A stretch of DNA of 39,917 nt from the IMG/VR virus record IMGVR_UViG_2851976983_000004, one strand, 5' to 3'. The notes beneath the pieces are model-generated. The model was given only the letters and a program-made list of their open reading frames with translations. It was not told the origin of the DNA and did not search any database. Numbering within the stretch: the first letter of the stretch is position 1; each line of letters begins with the position of its first letter. A program made the position numbers and the translations under genes. The DNA is from a virus. Taxonomy: Duplodnaviria; Heunggongvirae; Uroviricota; Caudoviricetes. Below are positions 2,789 through 39,917 of this stretch, one piece after another.

Positions 2789-3319
2789 TTACTGCACATC
2801 CTGCTCAAAAGGAATTATTGAAAAATCCTCAATATCACTTTTTATGGTAATACCGGGAATATTTTTCACGGCCTCTTTTTCATTCAGAATGGCATCTTTA
2901 TTTATTTCCTCTTTTACACGAATAAAGCGCTCAAGCCCCAGACGTCTCAGTAGTTCAATAACATTATCCGCTCCACGGATACTGACTGATGGCGGACGGT
3001 TTCGCCACTGCACCTCGCCGGTGGTGAGGTTAGCGAACTTCACCTTCCCGTTGCCGGTCAGTTCATCACGGTGTGCCTCACACCATGTCTGAATACCGGA
3101 CTGCAGTTCGGCCATGCGTTTTTTTAGGCTCTCGGTGAGCGGGGCATAACGTGCGGTGATATCGCCAATGGCGTCATTCATTTCTGTTTCAGCCCTGACC
3201 AGTTCACGTTGTGCGTCACCGAGCAGTCTGATTCCCTCAATGACCTCTTCGCGTGTCCCCGGTACCCAGAGTGCCGCTGCGGACTTGATACGTTTTGCCC
3301 CTTTTGTACTTTTTGCCAT
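2789..3319 (-). CDS. gam: Gam-like host-nuclease inhibitor (Mu Gam family)
   Basis: 176-aa ORF, size and sequence character of Mu Gam, positioned between B-like and mor-like genes. Confidence 0.75.
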   Translation of the reverse strand: MAKSTKGAKRIKSAAALWVPGTREEVIEGIRLLGDAQRELVRAETEMNDAIGDITARYAPLTESLKKRMAELQSGIQTWCEAHRDELTGNGKVKFANLTTGEVQWRNRPPSVSIRGADNVIELLRRLGLERFIRVKEEINKDAILNEKEAVKNIPGITIKSDIEDFSIIPFEQDVQ

Positions 3320-3346
3320 ATCTTATGATTTCTCCAGTTGTGCTGA

Positions 3347-3616
3347 TTACCACAAAGATTCCGGCCACACGACGCGACAGCCGTGCAGTTCGAAAACGCC
3401 CTGACGGAAATATCCCCTGTGGTCATGTCCGGTATACAGATAACAGGCCTTTCCCTGCTCAAGCATGCGCATGCAATGCGCACTCCGGGAAACGCGGATG
3501 ACAGGTTTGTTACCCCTGATGGTGATGCTTTGTACATCCGTGTTCGTCGCCTTAAGCGCCATAATGGCTGACTGCACTTTGCTGATTTGCTGGTTGATAC
3601 CTGTGGTGGATTTCAT
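3347..3616 (-). CDS. hypothetical early protein (kil-like position)
   Basis: 89-aa ORF immediately downstream of B-like gene. Confidence 0.5.
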   Translation of the reverse strand: MKSTTGINQQISKVQSAIMALKATNTDVQSITIRGNKPVIRVSRSAHCMRMLEQGKACYLYTGHDHRGYFRQGVFELHGCRVVWPESLW

Positions 3617-3618
3617 TA

Positions 3619-4812
3619 TTAAACCCCTTTGACAACGTCAGCGTTGACCTGTGGAACCCCGATTTCAGCGGCCAGATTCATGGCGGCTATCACCAGGTTA
3701 CTGACGGCCAGCGGATACAACAGGCTGACCATATTTTTACGATGACTTCCCGGATTGCTCAGGCGGGCACGTATGGCATCCACTGCACTGGCGTCCATAA
3801 TGTCCGTCAGTTGTTTACCTGCCCGTTGCAGTTTGAACGTCAGAAACTCTTCAAGGTTATTGTCCAGAGGCAGAAGTTCGACCACCTCACAGCGCTGAAC
3901 GACTTCACGGACTTCCATATTGCGTTCAGACAGTTTTGTCGCCAGTTCCGGCTGGCCAATCAGCACGATGGACAGCAGTTTTTTGAAACCGGACTCCAGC
4001 TCAAAAAAGCGTTTGAGGTGTTTCAGTGTCGGAATGGGCAGACTGTGGGCCTCCTCAATCACCAGAACGTGGCTGAACCCCGCCTGGCTGCTGTCTTTCA
4101 GGACGCGATGCAACTGGCGAAAGCGGGCGTCCTGACTGCGTCTGATGCTTTCCAGTGGTGCGATGGTACTGATAATGGCTTCGGCAATAGCTGCTGCCTT
4201 CAGGGTTTTCCCTTTCACATCGTTGTCTTCCATAGCGATGATGTATGGCTCGATAACAATTACCGGCGCATTCTCGCGGTTGATACGTTCAGTCAGGTCG
4301 CGGCGCAGCGTGGATTTACCCGCACCGGACTCACCGATGACGGCCATAAACCCACCATGACGGGCTGTCTGGTACAACGCCTCACGCACGTAGCGAATGT
4401 CCGGGGTGGTGAACACATCATCAGAACCCTGCATGGCTTCGTCGGCGAACGGGTCACGGAAAAGACCAAACGCTTTTTTGGTTGCCGGGAATAACACCTG
4501 TTTTTTGAGTAACATATTCTCTTCCTCACTGAGGCTCGTTTTATCTGTGGTACCCGCTGTACGGGGAGTGGCCGCGCCCTGTACAGCATCAAAACTCTTC
4601 GCTGTATCAATCCCCTGACTTTCCAGCCAGGACGCAAGACGCCGGCGCACTTCTCCGGGGCTGGTGCGGGGCCACGCGTTATGATTCACAATCTGGGCCA
4701 GCGTGGCCTCAGAAACATCGACAGCTCTCGCCACCACCGCCTGTGGAATACGGGCCTCTTTCAGTTGCTGCTTCAGTACCAGCATGTTTCCCTCCTCAGT
4801 TGCCGTTAACAA
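3619..4812 (-). CDS. MuB-like transposition ATPase (AAA+), N-terminal HTH
   Basis: 397-aa ORF with Walker A GESGAGKST; directly downstream of and overlapping the transposase gene. Confidence 0.85.
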   Translation of the reverse strand: MLTATEEGNMLVLKQQLKEARIPQAVVARAVDVSEATLAQIVNHNAWPRTSPGEVRRRLASWLESQGIDTAKSFDAVQGAATPRTAGTTDKTSLSEEENMLLKKQVLFPATKKAFGLFRDPFADEAMQGSDDVFTTPDIRYVREALYQTARHGGFMAVIGESGAGKSTLRRDLTERINRENAPVIVIEPYIIAMEDNDVKGKTLKAAAIAEAIISTIAPLESIRRSQDARFRQLHRVLKDSSQAGFSHVLVIEEAHSLPIPTLKHLKRFFELESGFKKLLSIVLIGQPELATKLSERNMEVREVVQRCEVVELLPLDNNLEEFLTFKLQRAGKQLTDIMDASAVDAIRARLSNPGSHRKNMVSLLYPLAVSNLVIAAMNLAAEIGVPQVNADVVKGV

Positions 4813-6565
4813 TGCTGATAACGCTGCTGCGGGCCGGCGTGGTCAGCGTGGCCATTACTTCATCCAGTGCGGCTTCCGGTACGCCGTCCGGGTACTGTGC
4901 CGTTAACTGGCGGTAATGTTCCGGCGTCCAGGTAAGGCCGTCGGCGCTGAACTTATCGCGTAGGGCTTTCGCGGCCTCCACATGAGTCATGGGACGTTGT
5001 TCAGTGCGCGGTCTGCGTACATCAGAGACCTGACCGCGCTTCGGTATACAGGCCGGAAGTGTGGCGTCATCAATATGTTTATACGGGTCAAGCCGCCCGC
5101 CGAACGGCAGCGCCTTCGCCTTGCGTGCGGCAGCTGCATCTGCGGCGTTGTCTGTACCGGTGACCAGCGCTTCGGTTTCTTTTGCCGCCGTCTGTGCCGG
5201 TGTTTCCGGCAGGGCTTTGTAACTTTCGCCAAATACCGCCGCGCCTTCAGCAAAGCCAAACTCGTTCTTTCTGACCTCTTCGACCAGGAAGAACGTCTCG
5301 TGGCCGTCCTCACCGGTCAGAACCACCTGTGCCACATCGCTGCGCCATGGGTTACGGGTAATCATCAGTTTTTCACCAACCAGTACGCCCGGTACCGTTG
5401 ATACGTCAAATTCAGTGCCCCGGAACGAGACACGAAGTTTTGGCGTGACTTTGCGGAGTTCTGGTGTCGCCACAGCCAGTTCACGGCATACCTCAACGGA
5501 AGGCGCTTTTTTCAGCTGCTCAGCAGTAATCTTCAGCCAGATATCCGTGCGGGTTTTACCGTGGCGGCTGTGAACAGCTGTTGCGTTAAAGTGGCTACGC
5601 CATTTCGCGGCCAGCGCGTTGAGTTCTTCCAGACTGTGAACCGGCCGGAATTTCAGACCCGGCTCAAGCTTGCGTTCGATAATGTCACGCGCCTTTTCCA
5701 CCTGTCCGGTGGCGCGGGCGTTATGCGGCTTGTGCGCTATCAGGTCGATGCCCAGTGAGCGGCACATGTTTTTCGTCATACCCGCGGTGTTTGCCGAGCC
5801 GGGGTCGAGATAGAGTATTTTCGGCACGCCGTGCAGCACGTCTGCGCCGCCACGCTCCTGCATGGCGTTGATAAGCACAGAACACAGGTTCTCACCGGAT
5901 TCCGCACCCGTCACATACTCAACGTAAATCCAGCCGCTGGCATGGTCGGTAATCTCGTAACTCCACACGCGGTCACTGGCGATACGGGCAAGGTTAGCGG
6001 GTTTGTTCTTGTAGAACTTCGCGCTGTCCATCACCTGCAGCCCTTTGTGTCCATTGCTCAGGTAGTAAAGCGTGCAGAGCGAGGCATCAATCTGCCAGAC
6101 GTGATTGGGATGCAGACTGGCCACTTCGGTATGCGGCGCAGGGGCATCCAGTTGTTCCGGGTGCAGGCCATAGTTACGCAAGGCACGACTGATGGCATCT
6201 TCGGACAACGGGAAAAACTCACCGGTGGTTTCATCTGTTCTGCCTGCGGAGATAAAGCCGTTAGCCCGCAGGGTTTCCACTGCATCTGCGATGGAATAGA
6301 GACGCTTACCGTTCTTGCGGGTGGCCTCACGCAGTGTGGCAGATATCAGCGCGGCTTCGTCGCGGGTCAGGGCGCTGCGCCCGGCATCGGCGCGTTTTTT
6401 GCGTTTATCAGTCACAGATACCTCCTTCAGCTTGCGCAGCAGAGTGGCGCGGGACATGCCAAGTTCAGCACAGGCAGCGTCGTATATTGCACCGCGTTTA
6501 CCATGCCCCGCGTCACGTGCCGCGCGGGCGACATAAACCAGTCGTTCAGTCAGGGCAGCATTCAT
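4796..6565 (-). CDS. Mu-type DDE transposase
   Basis: 589-aa ORF, N-terminal HTH region, integrase-like core (WQIDAS ... LDPGSAN ...), Mu A-like position upstream of the B-like ATPase. Confidence 0.85.
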   Translation of the reverse strand: MNAALTERLVYVARAARDAGHGKRGAIYDAACAELGMSRATLLRKLKEVSVTDKRKKRADAGRSALTRDEAALISATLREATRKNGKRLYSIADAVETLRANGFISAGRTDETTGEFFPLSEDAISRALRNYGLHPEQLDAPAPHTEVASLHPNHVWQIDASLCTLYYLSNGHKGLQVMDSAKFYKNKPANLARIASDRVWSYEITDHASGWIYVEYVTGAESGENLCSVLINAMQERGGADVLHGVPKILYLDPGSANTAGMTKNMCRSLGIDLIAHKPHNARATGQVEKARDIIERKLEPGLKFRPVHSLEELNALAAKWRSHFNATAVHSRHGKTRTDIWLKITAEQLKKAPSVEVCRELAVATPELRKVTPKLRVSFRGTEFDVSTVPGVLVGEKLMITRNPWRSDVAQVVLTGEDGHETFFLVEEVRKNEFGFAEGAAVFGESYKALPETPAQTAAKETEALVTGTDNAADAAAARKAKALPFGGRLDPYKHIDDATLPACIPKRGQVSDVRRPRTEQRPMTHVEAAKALRDKFSADGLTWTPEHYRQLTAQYPDGVPEAALDEVMATLTTPARSSVISIVNGN

Positions 6566-6568
6566 TGG

Positions 6569-7480
6569 TTATGCCTCCAGCCCGTTAATCTGTGGCGTCG
6601 GCTCAGTCAGCCATGAAGGCGCGACATCGCCTGTTGGCTCGTCCGGCAGGTCAAATGTGGAGCGCAGGCTACGCGCTGTGCTTTCCAGTTGACAGACCAG
6701 GCCTGCCATGAAGTCTCTGGGGGTATCAATCATGTTTTCAGCACAATATGCGCACAGTGTCTCAAAAGCGCTGGACAGTCGAACGGCGATGGCAGATTCC
6801 GCCTCAACCGCTAACGCGGTCACTTCCGCCCGCAGTTTCTTCACCTCTTCATCAGGCTCAGGTGGCTGAATACGGGATTTCTTCTCCAGTCTGGTGGAGA
6901 GTGAGTCTATTTTTTCATTTTTATCGGCGAGAACACGCTGTTGTGCTGCGTTGGTTTCGCGCGCTTCACGCAGGGCCTGACGCAATTCACGTACTGACAT
7001 GCGATCAACATCGTCAAGCGTCATGCCGGCAACTGTGCCGCCGTCGGCCAGTTCGGCAAGCTCTTCGTCGTCTTCTGTCATTAATTCGAAAAGTTTGGCT
7101 TTTCCCAAATGTGCCAACGTTGGCACATTTGGTTTCAGCGCCGGGGATAAGTATTTTGTCGATGCTTGCATCATTCTCACAGATGTCCGGTATGCCAGCC
7201 CCAACTCACTTTCAAGAATCTTTATAAACTCCCCGTGTGGTTCATTTTCCTTAAGGATTATCAGCCGCTTACCTGCCTCCAGCATGGCCTCAGCGCTCTG
7301 TGCCATATAAAAGCGTGCCTCATGGACAACACGATCGCGCTCATAGGGCAGACCATCGCCGAACTGTTGCATGATTTCCATGCGATGCTGTGTCATGGCG
7401 TTTAGACTGACATTGAGATCATCCGACAGCGGTACCTCGACGTTCAGTTCAGTGCTAACCGGTGATTTGGTGCGTCCCAT
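6569..7480 (-). CDS. hypothetical early protein, acidic with coiled-coil region
   Basis: 303-aa ORF between the regulator genes and the transposase; stop 4 bp before transposase start; family not recognised. Confidence 0.55.
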   Translation of the reverse strand: MGRTKSPVSTELNVEVPLSDDLNVSLNAMTQHRMEIMQQFGDGLPYERDRVVHEARFYMAQSAEAMLEAGKRLIILKENEPHGEFIKILESELGLAYRTSVRMMQASTKYLSPALKPNVPTLAHLGKAKLFELMTEDDEELAELADGGTVAGMTLDDVDRMSVRELRQALREARETNAAQQRVLADKNEKIDSLSTRLEKKSRIQPPEPDEEVKKLRAEVTALAVEAESAIAVRLSSAFETLCAYCAENMIDTPRDFMAGLVCQLESTARSLRSTFDLPDEPTGDVAPSWLTEPTPQINGLEA

Positions 7481-7490
7481 TGATTACTCC

Positions 7491-7799
7491 TTACAAACGA
7501 CTACCTGAAATAACACGTTGGTTGATTTCGTTAATGCGATCCTGTGCACGTGCCATCTCGTTACTGTGGGCCATGGCGATCTGCAGCAACTGGATGCCTG
7601 GTGCGAAACGCCCGTTTTCCAGTTTCAGGGCTAGTCCCTCTTCGATAAGGGTATTGAGTGCTCGATTGATGTTCGCCGGGGACTCATCTAGGGCTGATGC
7701 CAGTTCACCGTTAGAAACACCGTTCAGAGAGTGACCGCGTAGAGCTTTGAGTACACGTAGGATGCGGGTCCCGGAACTGGAGATATTTACTTTACTCAT
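7491..7799 (-). CDS. putative winged-helix DNA-binding regulator
   Basis: ORF 7491..7862; internal ATG at 7799 (MSKVNISSSGTRILRVLKAL...) avoids overlap with ner-like gene; start uncertain. Confidence 0.5.
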   Translation of the reverse strand: MSKVNISSSGTRILRVLKALRGHSLNGVSNGELASALDESPANINRALNTLIEEGLALKLENGRFAPGIQLLQIAMAHSNEMARAQDRINEINQRVISGSRL

Positions 7800-7851
7800 G
7801 TCACATTTCCATTTTTGCAATATGTGATAACCTGTTGCATATATGGAAAAT

Positions 7852-8040
7852 TTATGCCGCATTTGACGTGGGTTTTAATCCCAGCTTTACGGCAATTTCA
7901 TGGGCTTTGCCGTAACGAGCTTTGGTCTGTCCATTGAGAACACGATAGACCTCATTGCGGCTGTAGCCGTGTTCTTCGGCCCAGCGGGTAAACGTGATAC
8001 CACGCTGACGGAAGAGAGTTTTAACTTGTTCGGAAGTCAT
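7852..8040 (-). CDS. ner: Ner/Nlp-family DNA-binding protein (Cro-like early regulator)
   Basis: 62-aa ORF, FTRWAEEHGYSRNEVYRVLNGQ...AVKLGL resembles Ner/Nlp family; first gene of leftward operon; AAGGAG before ATG. Confidence 0.75.
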   Translation of the reverse strand: MTSEQVKTLFRQRGITFTRWAEEHGYSRNEVYRVLNGQTKARYGKAHEIAVKLGLKPTSNAA

Positions 8041-30611: not shown

Positions 30612-31128
30612 TTTTTCAAGTATGTGACTCCATTTCCTCTCCCGCGGATATGATAGAATTTTTTAATTAACACTAATTTGGCGGGGACTTAAATGCGGTT
30701 ATCAAGATCCTTATGTAAAGTAGTTGGCGATGTCATTGCTAACTCAGGCTCTCATGCAGCTTTAGATACGTTATTTCTTACTTCGGGAGCACCAGGAAAC
30801 CCTCCGGCAGGATCTCATAGTACAAAATGGAAAGACTGGTTATTTCTTGCAGGGCAAGATCCAGATACAGATAGTCTGGCAGTTCTGGGCGGAGTAATTG
30901 AGGAGTTTATGGATTTACCTCCAAAAGAAGGTACTCCCGAATATGCAGAATGGAAGGAAAAACGAGACAGAATTGAAGCTGTGTTACAAGAGAATGGACT
31001 TAGATATTATCGTTTTGGTCGAGTGTTGCCTGAAGGCCACATCCCGTCACACAATATGGATTACCCAGAGACCATAATTACTTATCAACAGCCAGTAATG
31101 CCAGAAAAAGTTGAGAACTTACTGGAAA

Positions 31129-33127
<1,999 letters not shown>

Positions 33128-33459
33128 TCATAGGCGAAAAGGAAGCCAGTCATTATCTTTTAGCAATGAATATGACGTGCAAGACCTTCTCCATGCATTG
33201 CTCAGACCATGGGTTCAGGACATCCGCCCAGAAGAGTTTACTCCAAGTTACGCTGGTTCAAGTACTCGAATGGATTTTTTGTTACCTGCGCATAAATTAG
33301 TACTGGAAACCAAAATTGTTCGTGATCGTTCTCATGCAAAGAAAATCGGCGATGAACTTATTATCGATTAGACTGGCCCCCTGAATCTCCAGACAACCAG
33401 TATCACTTAAATAAGTGATAGTCTTAATACTAGTTTTTAGACTAGTCATTGGAGAACAG

Positions 33460-33825: not shown

Positions 33826-34688
33826 GCTTAGTCAGCCGTTGTCTCCGGGTGTCGCGTGCGCAGTTGCACGTCATTCTCAGACGAACCGATGACTGGATGG
33901 ATGGCCGCCGCAGTCGTCACACTGATGATACGGATGTGCTTCTCCGTATACACCATGTTATCGGAGAGCTGCCCACGTATGGTTATCGTCGGGTATGGGC
34001 GCTGCTTCGCAGACAGGCAGAACTTGATGGTATGCCTGCGATCAATGCCAAACGTGTTTACCGGATCATGCGCCAGAATGCGCTGTTGCTTGAGCGAAAA
34101 CCTGCTGTACCGCCATCGAAACGGGCACATACAGGCAGAGTGGCCGTGAAAGAAAGCAATCAGCGATGGTGCTCTGACGGGTTCGAGTTCTGCTGTGATA
34201 ACGGAGAGAGACTGCGTGTCACGTTCGCGCTGGACTGCTGTGATCGTGAGGCACTGCACTGGGCGGTGACTACCGGCGGCTTCAACAGTGAAACAGTACA
34301 GGACGTCATGCTGGGAGCGGTGGAACGCCGCTTCGGCAACGATCTTCCGTCGTCTCCAGTGGAGTGGCTGACGGATAATGGTTCATGCTACCGGGCTAAT
34401 GAAACACGCCAGTTCGCCCGGATGTTGGGACTTGAACCGAAGAACACGGCGGTGCGGAGTCCGGAGAGTAACGGAATAGCAGAGAGCTTCGTGAAAACGA
34501 TAAAGCGTGACTACATCAGTATCATGCCCAAACCAGACGGGTTAACGGCAGCAAAGAACCTTGCAGAGGCGTTCGAGCATTATAACGAATGGCATCCGCA
34601 TAGTGCGCTGGGTTATCGCTCGCCACGGGAATATCTGCGGCAGCGGGCTTGTAATGGGTTAAGTGATAACAGATGTCTGGAAATATAG
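33783..34688 (+). CDS. insD: IS2 transposase OrfB (InsD), normally expressed as OrfAB frameshift fusion
   Basis: 301-aa ORF overlapping insC, DDE integrase core. Confidence 0.9.
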
Positions 34689-34894
34689 GGGCAAATCCAT
34701 CGATATAGAGCATTATCGTCGGCACTCTGATTGCAAAAATCTCTGGTGTGTCATCTACGATCCGAACCAGCTTATTACTAATTCTGAGGGGCTGAAATCT
34801 GATCTTGAGGGGAAGAGAGTTTCTAAAGACGGAGAACTTATCGTCAAGGTTTTCGTAATTTAACAAACGTATCAATAACTCCTTTTTAAATCCC

Positions 34895-35282: not shown

Positions 35283-36376
35283 CAGAACCCGATTTTATTG
35301 AACTCGATGCCGATAAAATCACGGCAGAAATGATTGCGAAATATGAAGCGGATACCGGCAAAACGTTGTACCCGGCACAGGCAGAACGTCTGCTGATAGA
35401 TCTGTGGGCCTATCGCGAAATGCTGGTCAGGGTGGCGGTACAGGAGGCGGCGAAGCTGAATCTGGTCGCCTTTTCCCGGGAGCCGATGATTGATTACCTC
35501 GGAGAACTGGTTGGTGTATACCGCCTTCCCGCGCAGCCTGCCACCACCACACTTCAGTTCTCTGTGGATGAGGCACTGGCCATTGATGTGCTGATCCCGG
35601 CAGGCACCCGCGTCAGCGCTTCCGACAGCGTGATTTTTGCCACCGATACAGATGTAGTGCTGAAGGCCGGTTTGCAACTGGTCAATGCCCCTGCCACCTG
35701 TACTGAGCCGGGTACCTCTGGCAACGGCTGGCAACCGGCTCAGGTCAGTCAGCTGCTTGATGAGATTGATAACGTTGACCTGCTGGTGACCAATCTGACG
35801 GCCAGCACTGGCGGTTCAGAGCAGGAAGACAATGACCGACTCCGGGAGCGTATCAGGCTGGCCCCGGAGTCATTCACCAATGCCGGAAGCCGTGGTGCAT
35901 ACCGTTTTCATGCCATGGGGGCGCATCCCAGTATTGTCGACGTCGCTGTTCTTTCTCCCGTTCCCGGTACTGTCGAGCTGTATCCACTGCTCAGCACTGG
36001 TCTGCCAGACAGCAGTATCCTCACTCTGGTAGAGAGTTTCTGTTCTGACGAAAAAGTCAGACCACTCACTGATACCGTGCGGGCTAAAACACCTGTTCAG
36101 GTGGATTACACCATTGAAGCCAGGATTACGATCTATCGTGATCAGGATGCAATGTCGGTAAAGGACAACGCTAACAGCGCCATACAGAACTGGGTGGCAT
36201 CACGTGCCGCCACGCTGGGACGCGATATTGTCCCCAGCCAGATTATCAGTGCATTGTCCGTTTCCGGGGTGTACCAGGTTGAACTGGTGACACCGGCACT
36301 GCGGGTGGTTGCAGAAAACGAATGGGCAAACTGTACGGCAATCACTCTTAACGTGACAGGGGTGTCCGATGGCTGA
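35273..36376 (+). CDS. baseplate protein J-like
   Basis: 367-aa ORF, conserved position. Confidence 0.75.
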   Translation: MALTEPDFIELDADKITAEMIAKYEADTGKTLYPAQAERLLIDLWAYREMLVRVAVQEAAKLNLVAFSREPMIDYLGELVGVYRLPAQPATTTLQFSVDEALAIDVLIPAGTRVSASDSVIFATDTDVVLKAGLQLVNAPATCTEPGTSGNGWQPAQVSQLLDEIDNVDLLVTNLTASTGGSEQEDNDRLRERIRLAPESFTNAGSRGAYRFHAMGAHPSIVDVAVLSPVPGTVELYPLLSTGLPDSSILTLVESFCSDEKVRPLTDTVRAKTPVQVDYTIEARITIYRDQDAMSVKDNANSAIQNWVASRAATLGRDIVPSQIISALSVSGVYQVELVTPALRVVAENEWANCTAITLNVTGVSDG

Positions 36377-36947
36377 GGCGCTACGACTACCGCCACCGCT
36401 TGAGGGTGATATCAGTCTCAAAACGCTGGGAAGACTGGCCGAACGGCTGGATAACATCGACCTGAGCGTACTGATGGTCTGTCTCGTCGATATCGTCGAC
36501 AGTTCCGCGCTGCCATGGCTGGGCGAGCAGTTCTCGTTGTTCGGCGATGGCTGGGAACTGGCGGAATCGGACGATGTACGCCGCATGCTTATCAAATCCG
36601 CTATCGAGCTACACCGCTATAAAGGAACGCCGTGGTCAATCCGGGAAATTATCCGCCGTTTTGGCTTTGGCGAAGTAGAGCTGATAGAAGGTACGGGGCA
36701 GATCGGCTACGACGGTAAACACAGTTACAACGGACTTTTCGTCCATGGCGATGCACAAGCCTGGGCAGTCTATCGGGTCATCCTTCAACAGCCCATCACT
36801 AATGATCAGGCAGCGCTGTTACGTCAGACGCTCGCTGCCTTTGCTCCGGCTCGCTGCCATCTGGCAAGCCTGGAATATCAGTCTGTCGCCATTCGATACA
36901 ACAGTACTACCCGTTATGACGGTAGTTACAACCACGGGAGCAGTTAA
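36369..36947 (+). CDS. tail protein I-like (baseplate)
   Basis: 192-aa ORF, conserved position before tail fibre. Confidence 0.7.
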   Translation: MAEALRLPPPLEGDISLKTLGRLAERLDNIDLSVLMVCLVDIVDSSALPWLGEQFSLFGDGWELAESDDVRRMLIKSAIELHRYKGTPWSIREIIRRFGFGEVELIEGTGQIGYDGKHSYNGLFVHGDAQAWAVYRVILQQPITNDQAALLRQTLAAFAPARCHLASLEYQSVAIRYNSTTRYDGSYNHGSS

Positions 36948-36949
36948 TT

Positions 36950-37894
36950 ATGGCAAATCTACCTGAAACCCCACAGTGGGAAGACGGCATCTACCAGATT
37001 GAGGTCTCTGACCCCGTTCTGGGCGGGCCTGACGGAATTTCTAACCGTCAGGGTAAACAACTGGCCAGCCGCACGCTGTACCTGAAGCAACAGGTTGAAA
37101 AAGGCGGGGCTGACCTTGCGAAACACATCGCGGCAGCAGACCCGCATGCCCAGTATGCACCGAAAGCCAGTCCGGCATTCACCGGCACACCAACAGCACC
37201 TACACCTGCAAATGGCGATAACAGCAAAAAGCTGGCGACGACGGAGTTTGTGGCCAAAGCACTTGCGGCGCTTGCAGGCAGCGCCCCTGAGACACTGGAT
37301 ACGCTTAAAGAGCTGGCTGACGCTCTCGGTAATGATCCAAACTTTGCGACTACGGTACTGAACAAGCTGGCGGAAAAGCTGGCTAAAGACCAGAACGGCG
37401 CAGATATTCCTGATCCTGCGCTGTTTGTCAAAAACCTTGGTTTGGGAGAAGGTACTCCAGCTATTGGCGTTCCGTTCTTCTGGCCCTCCGCGGCAATGCC
37501 AAATACTGTAATCGACAGCTGGTCCAGTATGGTGTTTTTGAAGTTCAACGGGGCGAAATTTTCTGCCACTGATTACCCTGTGCTGGCGAAAGTGTTTCCT
37601 TCGCTGGTATTACCTGAAGCCCGCGGTGATTTCATTCGTATCTGGGATGACGGGCGAGGTGTAGACGGTGGTCGCGAATTATTAAGCTGGCAGGCAGCTA
37701 CAAACTTTTCTCAGTTTGCCGGGAATATAGGCGATGGTGCGGGCCACGCAATTAATTTTCATGATGGTATCGCCGGAAATCAGCCAGGATTTTCACGATT
37801 TAATTTCACCAGTAACTCTGTGGGTGATGGTGTGAATTTTGTTGCCGTCAGACCGCGAAATATTGCATTTAACTTTCTGGTGAGGGCTAAATGA
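36950..37894 (+). CDS. tail fibre protein (constant N-terminal part plus invertible C-terminal part)
   Basis: 314-aa ORF; crossover site inside gene at codons 159-167 (FVKNLGLGE). Confidence 0.75.
   Translation: MANLPETPQWEDGIYQIEVSDPVLGGPDGISNRQGKQLASRTLYLKQQVEKGGADLAKHIAAADPHAQYAPKASPAFTGTPTAPTPANGDNSKKLATTEFVAKALAALAGSAPETLDTLKELADALGNDPNFATTVLNKLAEKLAKDQNGADIPDPALFVKNLGLGEGTPAIGVPFFWPSAAMPNTVIDSWSSMVFLKFNGAKFSATDYPVLAKVFPSLVLPEARGDFIRIWDDGRGVDGGRELLSWQAATNFSQFAGNIGDGAGHAINFHDGIAGNQPGFSRFNFTSNSVGDGVNFVAVRPRNIAFNFLVRAK
37425..37450. repeat. invertase crossover site, left copy (hix/gix-like)
   Basis: Reverse complement TTCTCCCAAACCAAGGTTTTTGACAA closely resembles hixL as I remember it and matches the right copy at 21 of 26 positions. 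Confidence 0.65.
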
Positions 37895-38487
37895 TGACCC
37901 CAATTTTTGATGAAAATGGACTGGCTACAGTGCCGGGCGATATGCGTTGTTTTTATTATGATGCAGTAACGTATGAATATACGGGCTGGTCTGATGAATA
38001 TATTAATACTGGTGTAAGTATGCCCGCCTGTTCCACTGGTATTGACCCGGGCGAAAACATTCCGGGAAAAGTGGCAGTATTTACGGGTAAGGGATGGAGC
38101 CATGAAGAAGACCATCGCAATGAGACTGTTTACTCAACAGAAAATGGTGCAACTGTTACAGTGGATTATATCGGTGCCATCAAAGACGGTTATGTCACGC
38201 TTTCACCGTTAACGCCATACGATAAATGGGATGGTGAGAAATGGGTGACAGATTCTGAGGCACAACACGGTGCCGCAGTAGAAGCGGCAGAAGCACAGCG
38301 CCAGTCACTTATTGATGCAGCAATGGCTTCCATTAGTCTGATTCAGCTGAAATTACGGGCCGGGCGGAAGCTGATGCAGGCAGAGACCTCCCGACTTAAC
38401 ACTGTGCTGGATTACATTGACGCGGTGACGGCAACAGATACCAGCACCGCGCCGGATGTCATCTGGCCTGAACTGCCGGAGGAGTAG
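37891..38487 (+). CDS. tail fibre assembly protein (U-like)
   Basis: 198-aa ORF, C-terminal ...APDVIWPELPEE typical of tail fibre assembly proteins. Confidence 0.75.
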   Translation: MMTPIFDENGLATVPGDMRCFYYDAVTYEYTGWSDEYINTGVSMPACSTGIDPGENIPGKVAVFTGKGWSHEEDHRNETVYSTENGATVTVDYIGAIKDGYVTLSPLTPYDKWDGEKWVTDSEAQHGAAVEAAEAQRQSLIDAAMASISLIQLKLRAGRKLMQAETSRLNTVLDYIDAVTATDTSTAPDVIWPELPEE

Positions 38488-38899
38488 GCCATTCAATATC
38501 TGGCGCACTGGAAGTATCGACCAGCTCCAGTGCGTCCAGATAATCCAGCCACAAATTATATTGCGCCAGTTCCTCACCTTTCAGACGACCAATAGCCGCT
38601 TTACCAGCCCATTGTTTACTGTTCATATAATCGTTGGCCTGATTAATCAATTGCTGCTTTTTCAGTTCGGCTGCAGCAATCTGTTCCTCATGTGTTGGTG
38701 GTGGAATTTCAGACCATGCAGGAAAACCATTTTCTCCAGCGATACGGATTTTTCCTTTCGGCGGTAATCCGGAAAACTCAATATACACTTGCTCATCAAC
38801 TTCAACAGCATCATCTGGCCATGAGTCAGCTTGCGTGTAATCCTCTTTCATCTCCAAGGGATAGAAAGAGTTTGTAGTCGCGGAATATATGTAATTCAT
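38459..38899 (-). CDS. alternative tail fibre assembly protein (U-prime-like)
   Basis: 146-aa ORF convergent with U, C-terminal ...APDIEWPTPP. Confidence 0.7.
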   Translation of the reverse strand: MNYIYSATTNSFYPLEMKEDYTQADSWPDDAVEVDEQVYIEFSGLPPKGKIRIAGENGFPAWSEIPPPTHEEQIAAAELKKQQLINQANDYMNSKQWAGKAAIGRLKGEELAQYNLWLDYLDALELVDTSSAPDIEWPTPPAVQAR

Positions 38900-38925
38900 T
38901 TTTCACTCCATAAAGTTAAAAGAAA

Positions 38926-39273
38926 TTAACACCCTAATGCGAAAAATGAAGCACCGATACCGGGTACGCCTGCTCTGGAAATAAATTTCACCGGGTCCTG
39001 GTTATAACCGGCACAAGCTATATAGCCAACATTTGCACTGCCGGGAGTGTAATCCTGAGTTGCAAATACCCGCAGACATCTATTCGGAAATGCAATCGGA
39101 AAATAGGTTACTGTGTCCTGAGACGTCAGCGAAACATCAATTGGCCCCCATTGAATAATTAAACCGGATGGCAATTTTTGATATCCAGTACCTGAAACAG
39201 AAAGCGTGAAGCTACCCATATCAGGTATCTGATTCGTCCCTGTCCCCACATTCCTTTTTGCCGCTTCTCCCAA
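38926..39273 (-). CDS. alternative tail fibre C-terminal segment, promoterless until inversion
   Basis: Minus-strand ORF starting at the right crossover site; reads ...[10 protein letters not shown]..., sharing GLGE with the fibre gene at the left site. Confidence 0.65.
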
Positions 39274-39292
39274 ACCAACGTTTTCGTCTTAA
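39265..39292. repeat. invertase crossover site, right copy
   Basis: TTCTCCCAAACCAACGTTTTCGTCTTAA, inverted relative to left copy, just upstream of invertase gene. Confidence 0.65.
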
Positions 39293-39344
39293 CTCCCACC
39301 TATACCAGCTATGTATTTTTAACAAAACAAAGAGGATATTTTTC

Positions 39345-39917
39345 ATGCAAATTGGCTACATTCGTGTGTCAACAAATGACCAGAATACAGATTTACAACG
39401 AAACGCACTGAACTGCGCAGGATGTGAACTGATTTTTGAGGATAAAATCAGCGGAACAAAGTCAGCCCGACCGGGATTGAAAAAGCTGCTCAGAACGTTA
39501 TCAGAAGGAGATACGCTCGTTGTCTGGAAGCTGGATAGGCTGGGCAGAAGCATGAAACACCTTATCACTCTTATTGAGGAACTGCGGGGAAAAGGGGGTA
39601 ATTTCCGTAGTCTTACAGACAGCATTGATACGTCAACACCCATGGGACGTTTCTTTTTTCACGTCATGGGGGCTTTAGCGGAAATGGAGCGCGAATTAAT
39701 AGTTGAACGAACACTGGCCGGACTTGAGGCAGCACGTGCACAGGGGCGTATTGGCGGACGCCGTCCGAAACTGACAAAAGAGCAACATGAACAAATAGCA
39801 AGGCTGATCAAAAATGGCTATAGCAGGAAACAGTTGGCAATTATTTACGATATCGGTATATCGACGATTTATCGTTATCACCCTGTAGAGGAACTCCAAA
39901 CTCAAGCTAAGTTGTAA
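39345..39917 (+). CDS. serine DNA invertase (Gin/Hin/Pin family)
   Basis: MQIGYIRVSTNDQNTDLQRNAL... with catalytic-serine motif and C-terminal HTH; AGAGGA 8 nt upstream; ORF table start 39258 is an upstream extension. Confidence 0.9.
   Translation: MQIGYIRVSTNDQNTDLQRNALNCAGCELIFEDKISGTKSARPGLKKLLRTLSEGDTLVVWKLDRLGRSMKHLITLIEELRGKGGNFRSLTDSIDTSTPMGRFFFHVMGALAEMERELIVERTLAGLEAARAQGRIGGRRPKLTKEQHEQIARLIKNGYSRKQLAIIYDIGISTIYRYHPVEELQTQAKL

Follow-up and report, generated by a model that had tools for sequence, protein, structure and literature searches.

The stretch of DNA analyzed here, IMG/VR virus record IMGVR_UViG_2851976983_000004 (39,917 nucleotides; Caudoviricetes; the whole of it is referred to below as the window), ends in a tail-fibre gene, two fibre assembly genes, a silent second fibre C-terminus and a gene for a serine DNA invertase. 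We propose that these very probably form an invertible tail-fibre switch with two states, of the Din (Gin/Cin/Pin/Hin) type, in which inversion of a 1,840-bp segment exchanges the C-terminus of the fibre together with its chaperone. The element that carries the switch, as its last module, is a transposable Mu-like prophage of the enterotoxigenic Escherichia coli (ETEC) B7A lineage. The proposal is based on the anatomy of the segment, on the family to which the invertase belongs and on public assemblies in which the predicted segment is found exactly in both of its orientations. Devices of this kind are well known from phages, and this one is an ordinary but working case.

Anatomy of the invertible segment and its invertase

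The two 26-bp crossover sites (Table 1), which the initial annotation had located within the fibre gene and upstream of the invertase, are both present and mutually inverted, and they have a 12-2-12 architecture with AA at the center of each. The 39.9-kb window contains their 20-nt core, TTCTCCCAAACCAASGTTTT, exactly two times, also when three mismatches are allowed, and the core was not found in any of 100 dinucleotide shuffles. The pair is the best inverted repeat of the region (21 nt, 95% complementary) and is not expected by chance. A multi-site shufflon, such as Min of p15B or the P2-like type with three repeats, was considered and is rejected, as the whole window contains only the two sites at three mismatches. 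Measured between the central dinucleotides the segment is 1,840 bp long (1,866 bp with both sites counted), close to the 1.85 kb estimated at the outset and, as had also been claimed, shorter than the G segment of Mu, for which the same method gives 3,058 bp; the value for prophage e14 is 1,827 bp. A core of AAACC-NN-SGTTT is common to the sites of the window, e14 and Mu, and the center agrees between the paired sites of each element (AA in the window and e14, GA in Mu), which answers the reservation in the initial annotation that a central dinucleotide without conservation in homologs would speak against a switch. The left site has an identical copy in the sister prophages described below (L002-L004). 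Exactly 54 nt separate the right site from the start codon of the invertase (39291-39344), as in e14 (L005 5632-5685) and in Mu (L006 5039-5092), and the sequence of this gap is not conserved among the three.

The 314-aa fibre open reading frame (ORF; 36950-37894) comes after the P2-type baseplate genes W, J, and I. As a whole it matches a PHROG tail fibre protein (E = 4e-119), and a Pfam search of its 314 residues returned no domain. Eighteen complete E. coli genomes with differing cassettes downstream carry its constant part at 100% identity. The variable C-terminus with which it is presently completed (Sv) is 40% identical to e14 StfE and matches a PHROG tail collar fibre protein (E = 3e-42) and, weakly, the tip of T4 gp37 in the PDB (2XGF, E = 0.008). 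The alternative C-terminus on the opposite strand (Sv') shares 36% identity with the variable part of StfP of e14, with weak PDB matches to 4MTM (E = 5e-5) and to R-pyocin fibre feet (E ~ 1e-3). This silent copy has no N-terminus or start of its own, an in-frame TAA lying immediately upstream, and in the window orientation the Sv' chaperone has no fibre to serve. RefSeq labels the fibre a 'hypothetical protein' and the silent Sv' an incomplete pseudogene, 'missing N-terminus'.

The residues GLGE are read across the site in both frames (plus-strand reading FVKNLGLGEGTPA), from which the initial annotation had predicted that inversion would fuse the constant part to the alternative C-terminus. 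Indeed, when exactly the interval between the central dinucleotides is inverted in silico, with exchange at the central AA, the result is an uninterrupted, in-frame fibre of 279 aa with that composition. The segment thus has a constant N-terminus outside it and two C-termini inside it, each with a Caudo_TAP chaperone, and both fusions are in frame; the layout described at the outset, with a fibre C-terminus and assembly gene on the plus strand and a second assembly gene and alternative C-terminus on the minus strand, was recovered in full (Table 1).

The protein encoded downstream of the right site, taken initially to be a serine invertase, contains the Pfam domains Resolvase (E = 1e-49) and HTH_7 (E = 1e-13) and aligns with the structure of Mu Gin (4M6F) at E = 6e-89 over residues 1-183. 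This is the make-up of the Din recombinases, which at ~190 aa combine an N-terminal catalytic domain, its nucleophilic Ser in an RVST motif, with a C-terminal HTH domain. Its identity is 81% with PinE of e14 and 70.5% with Gin of Mu, and the catalytic residues Y5, R7, S9, D64, R65, and R68 are the same in all three. Two 15-mers of the form G-N13-C lie at positions 22-36 and 71-85 of the invertase gene, as they do in pinE and gin, and point to a putative Fis enhancer inside the 5' end of the gene. In hin, gin, and cin an enhancer is known to lie within the 5' coding sequence (Johnson & Simon 1985, cited in PMC3798978). The region is also under coding constraint, and because this could explain the conservation of the 15-mers the enhancer of the window is given here as putative.

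Table 1. Coordinates of the switch, its neighbors and other features of the prophage in the window, with probe sequences for the two orientations
Feature	Position	Strand	Remarks
Constant N-terminal fibre part, ~162 codons	36950-37436	+	From the ORF list; outside the invertible segment
Left 26-bp crossover site	37425-37450	-	Inside the fibre gene; minus-strand reading TTCTCCCAAACC-AA-GGTTTTTGACAA
Invertible segment	37437-39278		No strand; from one central dinucleotide to the other; interval inverted in silico, and the result matched exactly in L012
Expressed variable fibre C-terminus (Sv, 'E-type', tail-collar-like)	37451-37894	+	~150 aa; completes the current 314-aa fibre
Sv assembly chaperone, 198 aa	37891-38487	+	Pfam Caudo_TAP, E = 1.4e-26; 60% identity to e14 TfaE
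Sv' assembly chaperone, 146 aa	38459-38899	-	Pfam Caudo_TAP, E = 2.3e-38; 61% identity to e14 TfaP
Silent alternative fibre C-terminus (Sv', 'P-type', gp53-like)	38926-39288	-	About 115-120 aa; Pfam Gp53-like_C, E = 4.8e-19
Right 26-bp crossover site	39265-39290	+	TTCTCCCAAACC-AA-CGTTTTCGTCTT; 54 nt 5' of the invertase start codon
Serine DNA invertase, 190 aa, Gin/Cin/Pin/Hin group	39345-39917	+	Complete; stop codon ends at the last base of the window
Putative Fis-dependent recombinational enhancer	39366-39429	+	Two G-N13-C 15-mers, 39366-39380 and 39415-39429; inferred
Junction probes, window orientation			AAAACCTTGGTTTGGGAGAAGGTACTCCAGC and CCTTTTTGCCGCTTCTCCCAAACCAACGTTTTCG
Junction probes, flipped orientation			AAAACCTTGGTTTGGGAGAAGCGGCAAAAAGG and GCTGGAGTACCTTCTCCCAAACCAACGTTTTCG
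P2 gpI-like baseplate gene	36369-36947		Directly precedes the fibre gene
Early genes: Gam	2789-3319	-
Early genes: rve transposase	4796-6565	-
Early genes: DUF3102 protein	6569-7480	-
IS21-family IstA	31974-32996	-
IS21-family IstB	31195-31977	-

Both orientations in public assemblies

Positions 36950-39917 of the window are matched at 100% in the B7A chromosome and in four other complete genomes, and all five have the segment in the orientation of the window, an observation that on its face counts against a switch in use. Likewise, a query made of the flipped junction (constant part, Sv', and tfa', the gene of the Sv' chaperone) had no match covering at least 80% of it in 5,426 complete E. 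coli genomes. The single orientation in five of five genomes is nevertheless rejected as a sign of inactivity, since the five share one insertion event and the outcome has a probability of 1/16 even if both orientations are equally frequent, and the frozen switch that the complete genomes alone would suggest was overturned by the larger collection of draft assemblies. Specifically, the 279-aa fibre predicted for the flipped state exists exactly as predicted (WP_123001317.1) and is found in 7 public contigs, the 314-aa form being found in 43.

Contigs with the exact invertase allele of the window were retrieved and checked for flipped junctions. A 235-kb contig (L012, GCA_012525755.1) has both flipped junctions, lies beside ppiD, carries the identical invertase allele and matches the predicted 2,968-bp flipped sequence exactly. 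A further contig (L015, GCA_003983655.1) has the flipped right junction, again with the identical invertase allele and beside ppiD. As the ppiD location and the allele are also those of the element in the orientation of the window, one insertion event is found in both states. The exchange in L012 agrees with the prediction for a cut at the central AA, its placement being no finer than the 15-nt identical core.

The sister prophages share the constant fibre part and the 26-bp sites with the window element, their invertase departs from that of the window at one residue, and they too are found in both orientations. Between the cores, the segment of WS3294A is the exact reverse complement of that of ATCC 43896 and TW14425, with collinear flanks, and the switch-over point lies within the TTGGTTTGGGAGAA core. 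With this sister allele of the invertase the orientations are biased by roughly 12 to 1, as judged from annotation. The initial annotation had held that a single orientation in deep read data combined with an inactive invertase would refute a switch; both orientations occur in public assemblies and the invertase keeps its catalytic residues.

The proposed mechanism and its alternatives

Inversion of the homologous P segment of e14 has been shown experimentally (PMC4272514; PMC12529663), and we propose the following mechanism for the switch of the window. The 190-aa invertase would bind both 26-bp sites as dimers, and these would synapse, most likely together with a Fis-bound enhancer in the first ~90 bp of the invertase gene. 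Both sites would then be cut with a 2-nt stagger at the central AA, one half would be turned by 180 degrees and the strands religated, with the outcome that 1,840 bp would be inverted while the promoter and the first ~162 fibre codons would remain fixed outside the segment. In the window orientation the constant part would be joined to the 150-aa collar-type tip, followed by the 198-aa chaperone, to give the 314-aa fibre. In the flipped orientation it would be joined to the 115-aa gp53/pyocin-foot-like tip, followed by the 146-aa chaperone, to give the 279-aa fibre. A population of lysogens would in this way release particles of two receptor specificities. The two tips are unrelated to one another, one being of the collar type and the other resembling gp53 and the pyocin foot, and hence they likely recognize differing receptors; by homology, the segment would serve to switch host range. 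Because the tips are only 36-40% identical to those of e14, their receptors are likely to differ from those of e14 as well. In this scheme we infer the rate of inversion, the identity of the invertase that does the flipping, the difference in receptors between the tips and the production of particles by the prophage.

Several observations weigh against this mechanism. Position 85 (codon 39597-39599) is Gly in the window allele, whereas among the 120 closest cluster representatives it is Val (66), Ile (51), Ala (2), or Ser (1), and PinE and Gin both carry Ile. V85G is the single difference from the sister allele, and G85 is the sole catalytic-domain residue that is private to the window allele in the comparison with those representatives. 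From alignment to resolvase structures, position 85 would probably lie buried within a beta-strand of the catalytic domain, and the G85 allele might be weakened. Each B7A-lineage chromosome has three matches to the invertase gene, that is, two further invertase-like (paralogous Din-type) genes, and these paralogs could have made the observed flips in trans. In addition, a simple scan detected no sigma-70-like promoter in the 54 nt that precede the invertase gene, and gave only chance-level matches in the region. Finally, two insertion sequence (IS) elements lie upstream of the fibre, and possible polar effects on W, J, I, and the fibre gene may silence the fibre genes and leave the prophage defective in this strain.

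The points on the invertase can be combined into an alternative in which the switch is real, its own G85 invertase is inactive or strongly weakened, and the lineage is flipped in trans by a paralogous invertase of the Din family. Din-family invertases are able to act on one another's sites. Moreover, inversion of one prophage by another has been shown for e14 and PinQ of Qin (PMC12529663), and the privacy of G85 among the 120 relatives, the single orientation in the five complete genomes, the excess of the 314-aa form over the flipped form among contigs (43 vs 7) and the three invertase matches per chromosome would all fit. We nevertheless consider this alternative unlikely. The catalytic residues of the G85 enzyme are all intact, the Ala and Ser found at position 85 in relatives indicate that small residues are tolerated there, and the V85 sister allele is likewise biased toward one orientation, so that bias is no evidence of inactivity. 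In public contigs the G85 allele occurs in 63 and the V85 allele in 825, and G85 is found in at least two insertions that are independent of each other (L007 as against ppiD), which argues that the allele has persisted in a mobile phage.

The IS elements bear on a different alternative, that the prophage is defective in this strain and that the switch is kept for the host, the fibre-tip protein of one orientation blocking the adsorption of other phages. The window has an extra 1,951-bp IS21-family element (31129-33079) that is absent from the B7A reference chromosome, and it therefore comes from a relative of B7A and not from that exact assembly; the flanks of the element have an 8-bp overlap that resembles a target duplication. 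An IS2 follows ~300 bp beyond it, at about 33.37-34.70 kb. Both elements stand in the tail operon between the baseplate genes V and W, upstream of W, J, I, and the fibre. StfE2, which is made by inversion of the e14 P segment, is reported to block adsorption of other phages, and the cassette of the window is homologous to the e14 stfE/stfP genes to which this defence role belongs (PMC12529663). In its fullest form the argument would be that an IS-disabled prophage has kept its switch because a fibre-tip/chaperone pair blocks unrelated phages, a paralogous invertase perhaps doing the flipping owing to V85G, and in that form, too, we think it quite improbable. Both IS elements hit one accessory gene and no structural gene. 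This nuclease-like gene, which has a REase_DpnII-MboI domain (PF18742), is intact in WS3294A (291 aa) and is split in the window into three parts (30693-31128, 33080-33371, and 34663-34863), whereas the structural ORFs that were looked at are all intact. Having moved to five host sites or more, the element was recently an active phage. The silent copy, stopped by the in-frame TAA, has no start of its own, and the invertase side offers no StfE2-like chimera with an independent N-terminus. A defective prophage whose switch serves the host is accordingly given little credence here.

That the inversion is not site-specific at all, and reflects either RecA-dependent recombination between short inverted repeats or an artefact of assembly, is scarcely credible. 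It is true that the exchange point can be resolved only to the 15-nt identical core. Repeats of 21 nt, of which 14-15 nt are identical, are however very short for RecA, and these have the 12-2-12 architecture of Din sites with a cognate invertase 54 nt away, as in e14 and Mu. Reads easily span a repeat of 26 bp, the 235-kb contig has both junctions exact, and an equally precise inversion is seen again in the sister element as well as in e14. Site-specific inversion by a Din-type invertase, as set out above, hence remains our strongly favored reading.

The host prophage and related switches

The prophage adjoins ppiD and the invertase is its last gene. It encodes an rve transposase (E = 1e-8), a Phage_Mu_Gam protein (E = 6e-41) and a tail sheath, indicating a contractile tail, and its first 25 kb are 95% identical over 86% to Escherichia phage PhiKM, whose record annotates a transposase. 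Literature searches on phage PhiKM, or on a described Mu-like E. coli prophage with such a switch, returned nothing specific. Copies with an identical fibre constant part are found at five host sites (gsk, rcsC, agaD, ppiD, and one other). The five insertions share 78 nt past the invertase stop (L001 10969-11046) with the common end ...GCGCATCA / ...GCGCGGCGCATCA and then diverge, which places the right end of the prophage 78 nt past the end of the window. Judged from its transposition to at least five host sites, this was a recently active phage.

The P segment of e14, a defective prophage of E. coli K-12, and its invertase PinE were reportedly described by Plasterk and van de Putte in 1985, and in layout and site core this system, rather than the G segment of Mu, is the closest described relative of the switch in the window. 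Gene order is shared: ymfQ-stfP-tfaP-(tfaE-stfE)-pinE in e14 corresponds to the gpI-like gene, the fibre, tfa, the opposite-strand tfa' with its tip, and the invertase. The inner half-site and center, TTCTCCCAAACC-AA, are identical, the segments are of similar length (1,827 vs 1,840 bp) with the same 54-nt gap to an invertase that is 81% identical, and in both each tip is paired with its own kind of chaperone (TfaE-like for the E-type tip, TfaP-like for the P-type tip), the chaperones being 60-61% identical. In contrast to e14, the window element is a transposable Mu-like phage, its constant fibre part is unrelated and longer (162 vs ~93 codons), its tips match StfP and StfE at only 36-40% identity, the outer half-sites differ, and its invertase has another C-terminal tail in addition to G85.

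With Mu the window element shares the character of a transposable phage with Gam and a contractile tail, the position of the switch at the right end of the genome, the logic of a constant part (Sc) with Sv and U set against Sv' and U', the match of its invertase to Gin structures (E = 6e-89) and a short stretch before the site, QNGADIP...KNLGL, that is 70% identical over 23 aa. It differs from Mu in the length of the segment (1.84 vs 3.06 kb), in the center (AA vs GA) and half-sites, in variable parts that are unrelated to Mu S and S', and in having no com/mom-like genes after the invertase. It may also be observed that the early genes are on the minus strand (2789-7862), opposite to the late genes and unlike those of Mu, and that a 397-aa ORF among them (3619-4812) is a candidate MuB-like partner.

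Two further systems were compared. A P2-like prophage of E. coli 1303 has the same cassette at 98% nucleotide identity, and its 199-aa invertase shares 173 residues with the 190-aa enzyme of the window; it belongs to a different phage family, however, the cassette sits on a long-shaft fibre of ~494 aa, and the invertase is on the other side, beside the tail genes. P2-like invertible fibre loci have been quantified by Goldberg et al. 2014 (PMC4272514). Hin/hix, the flagellar phase-variation system of Salmonella, has a recombinase of the same family, 26-bp sites with an AA center and an enhancer in the 5' end of the recombinase gene (putative in the window), but Hin flips a promoter and its gene lies inside the segment, whereas here coding segments flip and the invertase lies outside. 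The hixL site, which we take to read TTCTTGAAAACC-AA-GGTTTTTGATAA, is close to the left site of the window.

Homology between the window and the sister prophages breaks off exactly at the crossover sites. Identity is 99.9% on the left as far as 37451 and on the right from 39264 onward, these positions being the inner edges of the sites, and between those edges the two share only one stretch of 442 bp, at 93%. In the P2-like prophage of E. coli 1303 (L016 5001-6850) the cassette is 98% identical and the tfa' protein is the same (WP_021546685.1), and the Sv'-tfa' half is 98.3% identical to yfdL-yfdK of the K-12 prophage CPS-53. The cassette is thus a portable unit, and its limits are the recombination sites. 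Portable fibre cassettes have long been proposed for the fibres of Mu, P1, and p15B.

Knowledge of the mechanism is left unchanged by the switch of the window, which falls in the textbook class of Din-type invertible fibre segments and is of the e14 P-segment type in a Mu-like prophage. Its value lies elsewhere. For annotation, the 'hypothetical protein' and the 'pseudogene' of RefSeq are the halves of one working two-state gene. Phage engineers gain from it a pair of small tips (150 and 115 aa), each with a matched chaperone, on a short 162-aa adaptor. Assemblies from the same ETEC lineage will differ at this locus for reasons other than descent. Moreover, the same fibre-tip/chaperone cassette moves as a unit among Mu-like, P2-like, and e14-type prophages, of which the window provides a clean natural example.

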